NCBI GenBank assembly: GCA_050950765.1
Contig: JBMNIF010000003.1
Coordinates: forward strand, 576,001 to 640,000
Direction of reading: 5' to 3'
From: Bdellovibrionota bacterium
GTDB taxonomy: Bacteria; Bdellovibrionota_C; UBA2361; JAAYZI01
Length of the DNA: 64,000 nucleotides
Positions 24,001-42,000 of the stretch are shown in pieces. The position numbers were made by a program. Position 1 is the stretch's first letter. Each line of letters opens with the position of its first letter.

Positions 24001-27000
24001 CATTATTAGAACGATAATAAGATTATAAATTTTCTCTACATCAAAGAGATAGATTAACGGAGCTGTTAAGAAAAACACATTTAAAACACCTGACGGAAAG
24101 AACTCTCTACTCTCAACACCACCATTCCAGAGAGGATTATAGAAAGGGATATCAGGGAAGTTCTCCTTTAGTAACATTAAGCGGTAATAGAAACTGGCGT
24201 GATCATCATTAAAGAGGATACGTCCAGAACTTTCAGTAAGAAACGAAGTTGTCAAAAGTACAATGGCTAGCGGAGTGAATAATGCAAAGACATTGAGCAT
24301 ACGCCGACGCAACAACACCAACGTTATAAGAGCACCAAGTATAATCTCACCCCTAATAGCAGGGCCTTGCAGCATTGAATAATTCCGACACAACCAGTCA
24401 TTAAAGAAAACTAATAGTAATCCCGCAGCAAAAACCTCCGGTTCAAGACGCAGCTCTTTAACACGCCCTCGTAACAACAATATGGAGAGCAAAATCAACC
24501 CTCCCGTCACACCTAACAGATACGTCCCTGAAGTAAGCCAAAGCGTCCCATTATTTGACCAGAAACGAACGATGCCGGATAGAAATATAAATAGCAGCAG
24601 TGTCAATGAAAGAGAGAAAAGTAATCTTGCAAGTTTTGTCATGCTATCCTCAGTAAGAATATAGATTCCGAGCTAGGATAATTGAAACAGTCAAAAAATG
24701 GTACTATTCTTAAATTTCTTCATTTTTATCTGTATTTAAGAAGGTTTAAAGACACTGCAATTTGTCTTGGATATCTTTACAACTACTTGATCACTTTCGA
24801 AATTTTCGCTAGCATCGGGAACGCTGTCATTAGCAAAAAGTCATCCTTTTTCCTATTTTCATTGCAGCAATGGTGTGCGGAGGTGGTGGAATGGCAGACA
24901 CGCCAGACTTAGGATCTGGTGCCGCAAGGCTTGGGGGTTCAACTCCCCCTCTCCGCATTTTTAGATCAATTCCTCTCCTTTGATGTGTAGCAACTTTAAT
25001 TTATACCGGCAAAGTCTCCTCTTTAACTTTGCTTATTTATTTTTACCAGCTTTAATGTTTGCATTTTGTTGCCAATCTTCGCCGTCAATTAATAAACGTT
25101 GAGCCTTTGGTGTTTTTCCTGGAGTATACTTGTATACTATTTCAAAAGAATTTTTTCCCATTCTAAACATATGATCTAAACTGTAAGCATATTCTTCAGG
25201 GATATAGCATTGATTCTCTTAAATACTTAAAAGCACTTCATACAAAGAGAGTTATCGTTAGATACTAGATCCTTTCATCTCTATCTTTAAGAATATCAAA
25301 ATGTTTACGATATTCCGCCTTTACTTCCGGATCCTTCTCCTCTTTAAATCTATCAATAACGATCTTTAACGCTGCAATGTTGTTTGTGCGGATAGACTTT
25401 AAAGCTACGATCCTAACCTTCTTACTCTTATGTTTTAAGAGCTCAAGTCGTTCCACTAATGCAACTGAATTTTGATGTTTTTCAAGGACAAACGCTAAGA
25501 GATCTGCGTTCGTACTTTCTAAGAAAATCGAGACCAACTTGACAGGATTATCAACTATATCAAAAGCGTGTACAGCCTTTTCAACCTTCTCCCACGCCAT
25601 CATATCAGCCATAGCCAATACACCGACAGCGTGCCCCAACTCTGCTCGTTTATCCCAATGTTCAATCCGCACCCAATTTACAAGAGCTGCCGCCGGATCT
25701 TCCGTAAGACTTTTACCAGCTAAGATTTCAAAAGCCTCCTGTACGATCTCTTCATCTTCATTATCAGCTAATATCGCCAACAAGATCTTTTCAGCATCTT
25801 TATCAACCCAAACTCCGAAGCTGGCTAGATCACTTACCTTACTTTTACCGGCAGAAGCACTAATCAAAGCATTCAAAACATTGGCTGGAAGATCATTTCT
25901 ATCACGCACAACTTTTAAGAAATACATCCGTGTTGGATCTAAAATTCCTCTATTAAGTGCGAGATCGGCGATGGCTCTGGTACTGATATCATTACGCTCT
26001 GATAAAATCGGCATTATCTTAAGGATATCTTCATTCGTTAGTAGCTCCTTTTTCTGTATTATATCCTCACCAAAAACAGTAGCTAACTGCGAATGCATTA
26101 AAAGCAAAGCTAAAACAGAATATTCCGAAGCCTCATCAATACTTAAAGCATCACCTACCATCTGCGACAAAACAAGTTGATACTCCTGCATATCCCTTGA
26201 GTCTAAAGCTAATGATGCCGTCAACCTCAAAACAAATTCAGGCTCTTTAGGATAAGCGCTTTTTAGAAGCTTTTGACGTTCTTCCATCGGTAAGGTCGGA
26301 TTAAGCGCTTTCAAAACATTAGTGTAGTGCGGAGGAAGATCTTTACCACGTAACCTGTTAAGCCAAGCCCTGACCTGTCCAGCACTTCGCATCCAACCGG
26401 TCTTACTAACGATCCGAATTAAAACTTTTTCAGCGTCCTGTCTGAGATCTTCTGTCGGAGCGTCTTTAGCAAGGTGCACAATCGTAAGATAGGCACGCGG
26501 ATCATCTGAATCTTGCCATTTCTTTAAAAGGTGTTGAAAATCATTCTCTTGCAATTTGCGCTGTTTATCTAGCACTGAGGTAGTTGTCTCACCAAACGGA
26601 TTCTGATTATTTTCTAGCGGTGCTATCGGAACAACTTCCTCTCCTCCACCTGAAAAAAGCACCACCACTATCACACAAAACACAGCAGCAGCGATTGCTA
26701 TAAGTTTTTTCTTCTTCGCCTTCTGCGCGCGTGCTGCTTCTTCTTCAGCAGCAGCCATCTTTTGTTGCGCCAACTTCGGATCGGGAGCTACATATTGAGA
26801 AGATCCAGAGCTTGAAGTCGTAGAAGTTGAAGGTTTTACCAAAGAAGGCTTTGCCTCCGCACGTACAGCTGGAGCTTGTGTAGCGGAGAGGGCATTTTGT
26901 CTGATATCAGTGATAGCTTGCAGCACCTCTGCCGCAGATTGAAATCTTTTTTGAGGATCTGGTTCTAAACAACGAAAGATAACTTGTTCAGCCCAAATCG

Positions 27001-39000: not shown

Positions 39001-42000
39001 GTTGTAGTCTCTGATAAGCCGGAGGTACTTCATCATAAGGGTGCAACGGTGGTCTCGCCTGTGGAGCATTTCCAAACGGCGCAACCTCACCTCTTCCTTG
39101 TTGATCAAACGGATGATGCAACGGTTTATTCTGCATACCGTAATCTTGAATAGGATCCGGAGTTCTACCTCTTGTAAAATTTGGTTGCGGCGTAACAACG
39201 GATGTCATCATTACACTACCGTCATTTAATGGTGGTCGCGGTGCCGTTTGTGCAACATTAAAGGAGCGATCTTGTGGAGATTCTAACGGCGTAATGGGGA
39301 TTTCATTAGGAACTCTCCCTAAATCAACTTCATTCCCATCAAGTGCAGATTGAAAAGGCGGACGTGAATTCCCAACGGGCTGCCCTGTATTTGGATCTCC
39401 AAGTTTTTGTGTAGATGTAATTTTTGAAGCTTCCAACTTATCACGTGAAATACGTGCACGCATCTCTCCCGTAATCTCTGGGGTTAACATTACTGTTCGA
39501 TTTCTGGCACGAAAAGTACGCCCGCTCTTGCCCTTAACTCCAGCACTAGCTTTATTCTCAGAATCTCTGTTATTAAAATCATCCATCTGAACAACCCCAA
39601 TTATTAAATTAACGACTTACAAAAAATATCACTGCTATCACTACGATCATTGCAGCAAAAACAGATAGCAAAAAAGCTCCGAGAAGTGTTTTACCCCAAC
39701 CGCCCTTACTATTTTTATTTTTTACCGTCTTCTGTCTACGCATCCTGATAGCTGCCATCTCATCATATCCGGCAGGAGGCTCTTGCCTAACCTGTCCACC
39801 AACAGGAATAATTGCTACGGTAATATTATCAAAGCCACCCCGTTCTTTTGCTAAATCCACCAATTTGACGCAGGCGTGTTGCGGAGTTTCGTTATTAACG
39901 ATCTCTGCTAATTCATCATCTGTAACTTCACTGTAAAGCCCGTCACTACACAGCACTACGATATCATTAGGAGCTCCCTCTACTGTTTCCCAGAGCCAAT
40001 ATTTTTGAACATCAACTTTTAAGCCAGGCTCTGCACCGATACATCTAGTTAAAATATGTGCATCAGGGTGTGAGAGAGCATCTTCTTGCATAATTTTACC
40101 TTCATCGACCAACTGCTGCACATAAGTGTGATCTTTTGTCAGAAGCTCTATCTCACCATCTCTAATAAGATACGCTCTAGAATCACCAACCCAACCGATC
40201 GCCAATTCAATTCCGCTGAAAGTTACAGCAACCGCCGTGGTGCCCATCTGCGAAAAAGCTTGATTCTGCCGCCGCAGCACGATGACCCTGTTCGCCTCCA
40301 TAAACGCACTTCTTGTAGCTGTGACTAAAGGTCGTGCCGAAAAGCCCTCCAGATCACGTTTAATAGCGTCCACTGCCAACTGTGCAGCCAACTCTCCTCC
40401 TGCCACTCCACCCATGCCGTCGCAGACCAACCACATCAAACCGGATGGTGATTCAATCACAGCATAACGATCTTCGTTTAGATCCCTCTCACAACCCGTA
40501 TCCGTGATTGCAGCAGGGATATTTTTATCTGCAGCATTAGCACCTTCCACAGAAGATCTATCACCAATACCTTCATTCGATTTTGTCAGCATGAGAAGCC
40601 CTCAAAATTTACCATTTTTACACATCCGCTATACTGCATTTAACCACTTTACTTTTTTCAACACTTCGACCTTGCACTCCAAGCAAATGCAAAATATCCC
40701 CGACCTTACAGATGCTTAGATTCATAATCCCTCACGAAAATAAGTATGCGCGGTTATTCTTTAACTACGTATTTGATTACCTAAGTTGCTATAAAGATCC
40801 TTTTTTATTAAGACCCTTAAAAAACACTCTCCCCGCCTTGCTTGACATCGTCTATTTTCATGAATAACTAAAGATCGCCCGTCAGGATAAAGAAATAACG
40901 AGCAATATATAACCACGTTCTATTTTAATAAGTGAAGTACGTCTCTCTCACTTCTCTCTTTTAGCAATAAACATCTCTCTTATTATCTCTTATTACTATT
41001 CCACAAAAAGAAAAAGATGGTGCCCTCTTCTTTGGCATACCTCTTGCTCTTACAACTCTGTACGTATTGATAGACAAAGAAATGTCGATGGAGATTGCCT
41101 AGGATGGTAAGTATACGAAACACAGAAAATATTGAAAGATCTAGCACTATTAGGAGCTACTCCAATACTGCCTCAAGTAGTACGAGCGGTTCTGATTTCA
41201 GTGCTCAACTGGAGCAATTATTGACCAATAGCGGTAAGGACTATTTTACCGAAAAGGAAATTTTTTCCGCTATTGCAGAACGGGAGATCTCTTCTAATCC
41301 TGAAGCCCTAGAAGTTTTTCGGAATGCCTACAACGAATCGTTGCAAAGTTACGGTGCCGACAAGAAGAGAGCCGTTCTTTACGCCACTAATAGAGCGATA
41401 AAAGCAACCCGCGTGGCGGGATATCTATCTCGTCAGGAAGCACATCAACTCCGTGCTCGTGCCCTTGGAGCTGCGCAGATGGATAACAACCCCTACCGAC
41501 TGGGAACAGCTAGTCTTTCTGAAGGGGATCAAAAATATGCACTAAAAGATATCTTATCATCTGCCACTCAAAAGATGAATAATTATAATGACGGTACGGA
41601 AGTCGCCATTCTTCGTCGAGACTGCCGCAGAATCTTAAAAGAGTTAAAATACGGCTCTGCCAACGTAGCAGATTCAACAGACGGTAAGATTAGAACTACT
41701 TATACTTCTGAAATAGATACCTCTAAAAACAACTGTGAAACTAAAGAGGTATTAACAGATAAAGACGACTCAGATCTTGTTTCTTTATCTTCTCTCTATT
41801 TATCAGCAGGATACTTCTCAAACTACTCCGATCTGTTAACAGCTGCCCTTTTAGGAGACGATAAAGTTTCAGATGAAGAAACTTCTAAAGAATCTCACAC
41901 AAAAAAAGAAAGTGAAGATCTCTCGGATAATGCTTTGAAAGATACAGACACGCCTTAAGAAGATTAATTTACATACCCTAGTGTCTTCAATCTATTCAAC

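Follow-up and report, generated by a model that had tools for sequence, protein, structure and literature searches.

Why a gene for a type III export-gate protein should stand at the end of a gene cluster for a Tad/Flp-type pilus, and whether the two together encode one machine or two, is the question raised by a 64,000-nucleotide stretch of the genome of an uncultured Bdellovibrionota bacterium (hereafter the window; positions count from its first nucleotide unless a contig is named). The genome-wide survey's note proposed that Tad and type III secretion system (T3SS) parts form one chimeric envelope machine here. Open reading frames and Pfam searches delimit 11 co-directional genes on the minus strand, from 40592 to 25265, with neighbours 3–176 nt apart, in the order PP2C phosphatase, FHA-like protein, Ser/Thr kinase, TadZ, two CpaB copies, CpaF, TadB, TadC, FHIPEP protein and pseudokinase. 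This agrees with the minus-strand gene series given in that note, from whose list only the FHA-like protein of 350 aa was missing.

The block, all of which lies on the minus strand, opens with a PP2C Ser/Thr phosphatase of 327 aa (39609..40592; Pfam PP2C, 4.3e-18), which scores 217.5 bits against the NCBIfam Stp1_PP2C cut-off of 230, carries a C-terminal membrane anchor (hydrophobic segment 307–325) and is kept at the same position across related loci. The 350-aa protein that follows (38534..39586) has a disordered N-terminal part and a C-terminal FHA-like domain (Pfam FHA, residues 260–339, E 0.0045, below the cut-off). Its gene is conserved among related loci, where its position is matched in tblastn by the FHA end of a 471-aa protein from the T3SS gene set described below as set B. 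The third gene encodes a Hanks-type Ser/Thr kinase of 522 aa (36954..38522; Pfam Pkinase, 7.6e-53, profile 1–255 of 263) that is tail-anchored through a hydrophobic segment at 481–499.

The core of a Tad system, as recognised by Pfam and NCBIfam, comes next. TadZ/CpaE is a ParA/MinD-type ATPase of 416 aa (35568..36818; Pfam AAA_31, 8.2e-12) with 55–80% identity across related loci. Two CpaB/RcpC copies of 291 aa (34617..35492; Pfam RcpC, 1.9e-19) and 292 aa (33562..34440; 2.3e-18) are 68% identical to each other, and copy 2 exceeds the NCBIfam pilus_cpaB cut-off of 71 with 124 bits; relatives have at this site a single CpaB and one or two flp genes. The secretion ATPase CpaF/TadA (528 aa, 31913..33499; Pfam T2SSE, 8.5e-31) reaches 201 bits with the NCBIfam TadA-family model, below its cut-off, and shows 63–81% identity throughout the order. 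Its N-terminal extension of about 130 aa is rich in Ser, Thr, Gly and Pro, and the Pfam search returned no domain there, FHA included. The platform proteins TadB (325 aa, 30929..31906; Pfam T2SSF, 1.2e-13) and TadC (318 aa, 29969..30925; T2SSF, 6.7e-12) complete this core.

Pilin and outer-membrane components are encoded elsewhere or are not apparent. The region from 24001 to 41500 of the window contains no Flp motif, and the Flp genes of the genome lie at C1:386.8 and C1:387.2 kb; among 52 related loci, 50 have one or two Flp pilin genes within the cluster, which marks the Tad genes as those of a true pilus system. The single A24 prepilin peptidase of the genome (C2:803497, a 317-aa frame) is likewise away from the locus. 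As the survey had found, there are two secretin matches in the genome and neither is near: they fall in frames of 933 and 691 aa on other contigs, and no dedicated RcpA/CpaC or SctC secretin was found.

The FHIPEP protein (700 aa, 27812..29914; PF00771, 5.1e-178) begins 54 nt after tadC and matches the profile at near full length (3–656 of 657). NCBIfam gives it 591 bits as SctV, under the equivalog cut-off of 692.25 (TIGR01399), and 528 bits as FlhA, which is also under its cut-off. The best solved relative is LcrD/YscV (7alw; 376 bits, residues 10–696), followed by FlhA (36hw; 334 bits) and SsaV (327 bits). With the injectisome and flagellar gates (7alw LcrD, 7awa SsaV, 7amy FlhA) the protein shares full-length homology and a conserved channel half, and judged by sequence this homology extends over the membrane domain as well as the cytoplasmic ring domain of the solved nonameric gates. 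Unlike injectisome SctV, the tad-linked proteins form a clade of their own (29 rows, support 99) on the non-flagellar side (side support 99) and outside the clade of seven canonical SctV references, in a tree whose three-way split is unresolved and which leaves out Myxococcus and Chlamydia sequences. Among 34 orthologues, 69 columns are invariant, and the N-terminal channel half, including G193, D194, A197 and G198, is strongly conserved, far above the cytoplasmic half; dN is 0.09–0.24 and dS is saturated. In one family (f25; G061 and G072) the tad-linked FHIPEP is highly diverged, with Pfam matches over about 100–130 residues only and a frame that is still open, yet three FliP copies are retained; there is therefore no signal of co-loss. 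Four non-flagellate genomes keep this FHIPEP, which therefore does not serve the flagellum.

The last gene, psK814 (814 aa, 25265..27709), had been listed as a further kinase. The gene is indeed present after the FHIPEP gene, but its product reads as a bitopic membrane pseudokinase that includes a HEAT solenoid: the Pfam Pkinase match is weak (1.9e-09, profile 97–259 only), and a kinase fold (1–278) is followed by a transmembrane segment (336–354) and a HEAT-like solenoid (376–814), for which the atlas gave HEAT leads. In the AlphaFold model (mean pLDDT 86.8), Foldseek matches PknA/PknB with a TM score of 0.73 by target. Of the 51 loci that could be assessed, 49 have this gene after the FHIPEP gene.

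The FHIPEP and CpaF orthologues lie on one contig and strand, 1.9–2.6 kb apart, in 49 of the 61 genomes of the order; among the other 12, the two genes are on different contigs in five and seven are not assessable. Anchored on CpaF, the tadC–FHIPEP junction is present in 60 of 79 loci (13 not assessable), and it recurs in all five genomes from other families and orders of the class. The conservation that the survey's note had seen in ten of ten genomes is thus stronger than it claimed, and the rarity outside the order that it implied is contradicted. Its statement that every genome has three FHIPEP classes is nearly true, except that the flagellar class is absent from G019, G021, G032 and G042 and the 620-aa class from G040. 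These data support a link between Tad and FHIPEP that is real, ancient, constrained and outside the Myxococcota.

Which type III components could work with this FHIPEP had been left open. The present genome carries three FHIPEP and three FliP genes and one T3SS-type ATPase beyond the flagellar one, all as reported by the survey, which leaves a single non-flagellar SctN for two non-flagellar sets. Set B, at C2:261–268 kb, encodes SctJ, SctQ, SctR, SctS, SctT and SctU and has no SctV of its own. Its SctU consists of the membrane half only (208 aa), and it is opened by FHA proteins of 463 aa, with a sole, C-terminal transmembrane segment, and 471 aa, soluble and with a C-terminal FHA domain; neither has the layout of a canonical SctD (N-terminal FHA, transmembrane segment, periplasmic ring). 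SctL and SctN are encoded with a lytic transglycosylase at C3:100 kb. Set A has a FliO-like gene and the only, weak, SctI-like match. The tad-linked FHIPEP is not an orphan gate, as a SctJ-Q-R-S-T-U set without SctV exists in the same genome.

Relatives indicate that set B is the partner. At least three of them (G001, G063 and G086) carry the complete set directly 3′ of psK814 on the same strand, so that the Tad and T3SS genes together fill a single block of about 26 kb; a partial set occupies this place in G062, G061 and G064, and sctR lies 8.4–8.5 kb downstream of sctV in G066 and G103. In the closed genome G040, set B is complete, the only FHIPEP proteins are the tad-linked one and FlhA, the FliP proteins are confined to the flagellar and set-B types, and the single YscJ belongs to the set-B type. 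The SctQ-like gene of set B is single-copy in 58 of 61 genomes. The genes sctR-S-T-U of set B are divergent in G039 and neighbour the second non-flagellar set (SctJ-SctQ-622-aa FHIPEP), an arrangement that makes the pairing of set B with the tad-linked FHIPEP less clear.

Given the gene content, the conserved gene order, the clade to which the protein belongs and the constraint on its sequence, we consider it probable, with some reserve, that the FHIPEP protein is the SctV of a putative needle-less, secretin-less T3SS that has been inherited with an Flp pilus system under kinase, phosphatase and FHA control. The remaining parts of this export apparatus would be scattered in the present genome, with the FHA proteins, SctJ, SctQ and SctR/S/T/U on one contig and SctL–SctN on another, whereas sctV and the pseudokinase gene have remained at the end of the Flp/Tad operon, probably one transcription unit, throughout a class-level lineage in which several members keep the whole T3SS core contiguous. 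The kinase, phosphatase and FHA proteins may act as a phospho-threonine switch that triggers assembly, in the way that PpkA, PppA and Fha1 do in type VI secretion. CpaF with TadB/C would polymerise the Flp pilin, and SctV with SctRSTU and SctJ would form an export gate in the inner membrane, which either supplies the pilus with substrates or works beside it at one site, as proposed for the Kil/T3SS* pair of Myxococcus.

Unlikely, in our view, is co-regulation alone, in which the pilus would be one machine and the T3SS-like apparatus another, both of the same life stage and expressed jointly from a shared operon, but coupled neither physically nor mechanistically. The order of the genes is evidence of joint inheritance and not of contact, and since 60 of the 61 genomes in the order have the T3SS core unlinked from the tad operon, the parts need not all be tightly linked. 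Against this, a class-wide tadC-sctV-pseudokinase junction kept over saturated synonymous divergence exceeds what regulation usually preserves, and the presumably homologous Myxococcus pair colocalises, with T3SS* recruitment dependent on Kil, according to the available text of Herrou 2025 (PMC12075869).

The survey's idea in its literal form, in which the ring of SctV is built into the Tad inner-membrane platform as a structural component and works with TadB/TadC and CpaF instead of SctRSTU in one hybrid machine, seems improbable to us. It would account for the fact that sctV never leaves tadC while the other T3SS core genes now lie elsewhere in almost every genome of the order, and for the lack of secretin and needle genes in the cluster itself. 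To our knowledge, however, SctV/FlhA assembles around the SctRST core in every solved system, and on geometric grounds a CpaF hexamer under TadB/C would occupy the place of the SctV cytoplasmic ring. The complete SctJ/Q/R/S/T/U set without SctV also co-occurs in 58 of 61 genomes. What stands of the survey's proposal is a Tad–FHIPEP link that parallels Kil/T3SS*; what does not is a gate that is a lone T3SS part grafted onto Tad. Because the V-less set B adjoins sctV in several lineages, and because G040 has retained just the tad-linked FHIPEP and that set, a single cluster that encodes two cooperating machines is more likely than one chimeric platform. Least credible is a repurposed paralogue, no longer an export gate but an ion-conducting or regulatory membrane protein of the pilus motor, which would fit the scores under both equivalog cut-offs, the less conserved cytoplasmic half and the mostly unrecognisable, open f25 frame, but not the full-length matches to Pfam and to the solved nonameric LcrD, nor the co-occurring V-less SctRSTU set.

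The closest known counterpart of the two cooperating machines is the Tad-like Kil system of Myxococcus xanthus with its needle-less T3SS* (Seef 2021, PMC8460266; Herrou 2025; Thiery 2022; each as far as its text was available). Both cases combine a Tad-type machine that has FHA partners (here the 350-aa protein of the operon and the two that open set B) with a T3SS-like inner-membrane apparatus without secretin genes, which in Myxococcus lacks those for needle and translocon as well. The two non-flagellar T3SS-like sets recall the long and short 'Myxo' loci of Abby and Rocha (PMC3459982), and the FliO-like gene of set A has a counterpart in both Myxococcus T3SS-like systems (PMC12403147), as far as the accessible parts of these two papers go. 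The differences are that kil (MXAN_3102-3108, MXAN_4648-4661) and T3SS* (mxan_2434-2464) are separate loci whereas sctV here lies inside the tad operon, that the KilF ATPase is an N-terminal FHA fusion and CpaF is not, that Myxococcus has a short KilC secretin with no similar secretin nearby here, that the present locus has in addition genes for a kinase, a phosphatase and a membrane pseudokinase, and that the lineage is Bdellovibrionota-like and not of the Myxococcota. Compared with the canonical Tad/Flp systems of Caulobacter (Cpa) and Aggregatibacter (Tad), TadZ, Flp (in relatives), CpaB, CpaF, TadB and TadC occur in the usual order, but the cluster lacks an RcpA/CpaC secretin and a prepilin peptidase and ends in sctV. 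As in injectisomes and flagella, SctRSTU/J/Q/L/N partners are encoded in the genome. The threonine-phosphorylation pathway of type VI secretion consists of PpkA, PppA and Fha1, and here too the genes of an envelope machine are accompanied by those of a Hanks kinase, a PP2C phosphatase and FHA proteins, although that machine is a Tad pilus/T3SS-like one and not type VI. The pathway has been cited for Kil as well (PMC8460266).

Tentatively, we suggest that the gate could load unfolded cargo into the periplasm, that the secretin-less pilus could push or carry it out, and that a circuit of kinase, phosphatase, FHA proteins and pseudokinase could fire both; the cluster might then be the ancestral, still-joined form of Kil/T3SS* and a living representative of the secretin-less stage that Abby and Rocha put at the root of the non-flagellar T3SS. 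Whether Kil and T3SS* form one machine, a central question of Myxococcus predation, is unresolved according to the available text of its authors and of a 2025 review (PMC12075869, PMC12428579). The present locus provides independent evolutionary evidence on it: in another phylum-level lineage both gene sets occur as one co-directional cluster, with a tadC-sctV junction that has survived saturated synonymous divergence. None of the papers found in our literature search describes this Tad–FHIPEP arrangement, and the remark in the accessible part of the review that Kil/T3SS* co-occurrence is confined to the Cystobacterineae is contradicted by the pairing of Tad and T3SS-like genes here. The known range of secretin-less T3SS is thereby widened, and the pseudokinase with its HEAT solenoid, the kinase and the phosphatase, both tail-anchored, and the FHA proteins are new candidates for the parts that couple the two systems.

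The block studied here occupies the minus strand of the window from 40592 to 25265 and consists of eleven ORFs separated by gaps of 3 to 176 nt, according to ORF calling. By Pfam and NCBIfam, it encodes a PP2C phosphatase, a 350-aa protein with a weak C-terminal FHA domain (E 0.0045), a Hanks-type Ser/Thr kinase, a TadZ-like AAA_31 ATPase, two CpaB/RcpC proteins (33562-35492), a CpaF ATPase, TadB, TadC, a 700-aa FHIPEP protein (27812-29914; E 5.1e-178, profile positions 3-656 of 657) starting 54 nt past tadC, and an 814-aa protein that matches a kinase profile in part (25265-27709). 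This order agrees with that given in the genome-wide survey's note, to which the FHA protein, missing from its list, has to be added. Both the kinase and the phosphatase are tail-anchored as judged from hydrophobic segments. A simple promoter and terminator scan gave counts at chance (31 against 37 expected, and 16 against 14), and at this chance level no terminator-like site was found in the tadC-FHIPEP gap or in the gap that follows the FHIPEP gene. The block terminates at a tRNA-Leu gene on the opposite strand (24876-24958). Beyond it, at 20558-24642, are genes for two multi-pass membrane proteins of 601 and 758 aa with 10-14 hydrophobic segments, which had no Pfam match and are not kept beside the cluster in relatives. 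Upstream of the operon (41964-47515) lies a run of sulfatase- and phosphodiesterase-family genes encoding proteins of 452, 277, 272 and 694 aa.

The Tad part represents a real pilus system, because one or two Flp-motif genes (…G/A-S/T-x-V-E-Y…) are located between tadZ and cpaB in 50 of 52 related loci. In these loci cpaB occurs only once. The cluster in the window lacks flp altogether and contains a second cpaB at this position; the tandem copies share 68% protein identity, and their first 18 residues are identical. The flp genes of this genome are found at C1:386.8 and 387.2 kb, where they adjoin a sulfatase-family gene (L099:6787-8193). A second, distant Tad cluster at C1:143941-152748 (L100:4941-13748) encodes TadZ, a 71-aa protein, CpaB, CpaF (39% identity), TadB and a 318-aa protein. 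Genes for a response regulator and a hybrid histidine kinase come next, and this cluster, too, is without a secretin.

The linkage between the Tad genes and the FHIPEP gene, reported as conserved in the genome-wide survey's note, was confirmed in larger samples. Among 61 genomes of the order, the studied one included, orthologues of FHIPEP (39-57% identity) and CpaF (63-81% identity) share contig and strand at a distance of 1.9-2.6 kb in 49. They are split between contigs in five (G049, G006, G037, G017 and G044), and seven are not judgeable (G043, G031, G033, G034, G035, G056 and G059). A scan of species genomes anchored on CpaF yielded 79 loci, all from MAGs labelled Bdellovibrionota, Bdellovibrionales, Oligoflexia or Deltaproteobacteria. 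By tblastn, the FHIPEP gene directly follows tadC in 60 of these, and 13 are too short to decide. Six loci have room yet lack FHIPEP; they represent paralogous Tad clusters, whose CpaF has 57-70% identity, and in five cases the MAG carries the main cluster as well. The 814-aa protein is encoded after the FHIPEP gene in 49 of 51 assessable loci. A phylum-level sample of 120 further genomes comprised only members of the window's order and of other orders in its class. Five genomes of these other orders, representing five families, were examined, and in 5/5 the CpaF orthologue lies 2.1-2.4 kb upstream of a third FHIPEP gene. In two relatives, a flagellar fliP is located 7-10 kb upstream of the cluster's PP2C gene (G009 C2:344832; G018 C5:92651).

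NCBIfam favoured SctV (591 bits) over FlhA (528 bits) for the tad-linked FHIPEP protein, each score being below the cut-off. Among solved structures, its closest relative is the LcrD nonamer 7alw in full length (376 bits). A maximum-likelihood tree of 51 rows, rooted on seven FlhA sequences, placed the tad-linked class on the non-flagellar side with a support of 99; the very long-branched L069 was kept in every count. This side comprises three clades, namely seven canonical SctV references (support 98), a 622-aa class (eight rows, 99) and the tad-linked class (29 rows, 99), the branching order of which is not resolved by the tree. An alignment of 34 orthologues contains 69 invariant columns, 67 of them within the first 301 residues, including the motif G193 D194 A197 G198, which presumably corresponds to the essential Asp in FlhA. 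Values of dN were 0.09-0.24 for the closest pairs, and since synonymous sites are saturated, only a dN much smaller than dS can be stated. In family f25 (G061 C33:59953-60372; G072 C3:159029-159325) the frame is open over 577-686 aa, of which Pfam recognises only about 100-130 residues; judged from these sequences, the gate of this family would be a very fast-evolving or repurposed one.

The 814-aa protein was modelled with AlphaFold from 32 orthologues (mean pLDDT 86.8). In the predicted model, residues 1-278 adopt a kinase fold resembling PknA/PknB (Foldseek, TM 0.73 by target), followed by a hydrophobic helix at 336-354 and an all-helical solenoid at 376-814. The positions expected to hold the β3 lysine, the catalytic-loop Lys and Asn and the DFG Asp, presumably located correctly in an alignment read by eye, are not conserved, and we therefore refer to the protein as a pseudokinase. 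A Foldseek search with the whole model returned kinases only and nothing on the solenoid, which the atlas placed near HEAT-repeat clusters; this may serve as a lead only. A complex of SctV (residues 340-700) and the pseudokinase (residues 1-345), each supplied as an alignment, was predicted with a score of 0.00, which speaks neither for nor against contact.

The remainder of the genome (2.64 Mb, five contigs) holds further type III parts. Profile searches bore out the survey's inventory of three FHIPEP genes, two secretin matches, both far from the operon, and a single T3SS ATPase besides FliI. The FHIPEP genes are the tad-linked one, a 622-aa form and a clear FlhA, which adjoins flhB and scores 854 bits, above the NCBI cut-off; there are also three FliP genes. 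The ATPase belongs to a trio beside murJ (C3:100226-103328; L098:7226-10328) that encodes a FliH/SctL-like protein, the sole non-flagellar SctN-type ATPase and an SLT lytic transglycosylase; as the only one of its kind, this ATPase would have to be shared by two non-flagellar T3SS-like sets. Three groups of non-flagellar genes were distinguished by Pfam. Set A (contig C5) encodes a weakly matching SctI-like protein, a FliO-like protein, SctR, SctS and a 290-aa SctU membrane half (C5:53372-54133). A GAF histidine kinase of 1074 aa separates this half from a 94-aa FlhB C-terminal domain, and the set also includes an FHA protein. Set B (C2:261-268 kb) encodes a 463-aa protein with two FHA domains, one of 471 aa with FHA at its C-terminus, SctJ, a 76-aa protein, a SctQ-like protein, SctR and SctS, a seven-helix protein of 207 aa that occupies the SctT position, an SctU membrane half of 208 aa (C2:261152-261766), a protein of 85 aa and a TPR protein; SctV is missing from this set. 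The 471-aa protein was considered as SctD and rejected for its wrong architecture. Set C (contig C1) consists of genes for a sigma factor, SctJ, a SctQ-like protein, the 622-aa FHIPEP and a TPR protein, and has no SctRSTU. Both non-flagellar SctU-like genes encode the membrane half only, and two stand-alone proteins of 94-99 aa (C5:49889-50098 and C3:236833-237045) match the FlhB/SctU C-terminal domain only.

Which sctRSTU genes partner the tad-linked SctV had been left open in the survey, and several lines of evidence now point to set B. In G001, tadC, sctV, the pseudokinase gene and the whole of set B follow each other on a single strand. The same full series occurs in G063 and in G086 (5.1 Mb, three contigs), where it measures 26 kb from the PP2C to the TPR gene. 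The first set-B genes come after the pseudokinase gene in G062, G061 and G064, and in G066 and G103 sctR follows sctV on its strand at a distance of 8.4-8.5 kb; no such downstream sctR was found in G088 and G112. The closed genome G040 has two genes each for FHIPEP (FlhA besides the tad-linked class) and for FliP (one flagellar, one of set-B type) and a single YscJ gene, that of a full set B; sets C and A were thus lost and the tad-linked SctV was kept together with set B. Within the window's order, the set-B SctQ-like gene is single-copy in 58 of 61 genomes and near sctV in G001 only. FliP is still present in three copies in those family f25 genomes whose tad-linked FHIPEP is degenerate, which leaves no co-loss signal. 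Among the annotated ORFs flanking set B in G063, G001, G040 and G086 there is no secretin or SctN; the flanks hold sigma factors, a glycosyltransferase, unrelated enzymes or unannotated ORFs.

The arrangement in G039 counts against a simple pairing of SctV with set B. On its contig C31 (L088:6947-16058), the set-B sctR-S-T-U, 85-aa and TPR genes are divergent beside the set-C genes for the sigma factor, SctJ, SctQ, 622-aa FHIPEP and TPR protein, a different way of joining T3SS pieces. A role of the tad-linked FHIPEP in the flagellum is rejected because G019, G021, G032 and G042, which keep both non-flagellar FHIPEP classes, have no FlhA or flagellar-type FliP (G019 and G021 also no FliF) and probably represent non-flagellate lineages.

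Near-identical DNA to window positions 27600-31000 occurs in metagenome runs of 15 studies of anaerobic digesters, bioreactors, wastewater and landfills. Twelve rows of matching runs contain at least half of the sampled words, and none of the runs is on record as RNA.

The closest known parallel is the Myxococcus pair of the Tad-like Kil pilus and the needle-less T3SS*. Kil was defined by Seef 2021 (PMC8460266), who noted many FHA proteins in Kil and kil-like genes in Bdellovibrionales and Bradymonadales. According to Herrou 2025 (PMC12075869), Kil and T3SS* colocalise, T3SS* is recruited by Kil, and a larger Kil/T3SS* complex is proposed. Their co-occurrence is confined to Cystobacterineae according to a 2025 review (PMC12428579), and a 2024 paper (PMC11509652) reports both in Bradymonabacteria. 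Secretin-less 'Myxo' loci, long and short, were placed at the root of the non-flagellar T3SS by Abby and Rocha 2012 (PMC3459982). The tad locus of B. bacteriovorus is given with an RcpA secretin by Avidan 2017 (PMC5430801), and an FHIPEP gene is not mentioned in the available passages. Our literature search found no description of an FHIPEP gene in a tad operon.

The genome-wide survey's note had proposed that the Tad platform and the export gate form one chimeric machine. Of this proposal, the link between pilus and type III genes stands, and it is real and old. Judged from gene content and order, the gate itself is no orphan on the Tad platform and probably belongs to a complete, predicted needle-less T3SS core, that of set B.
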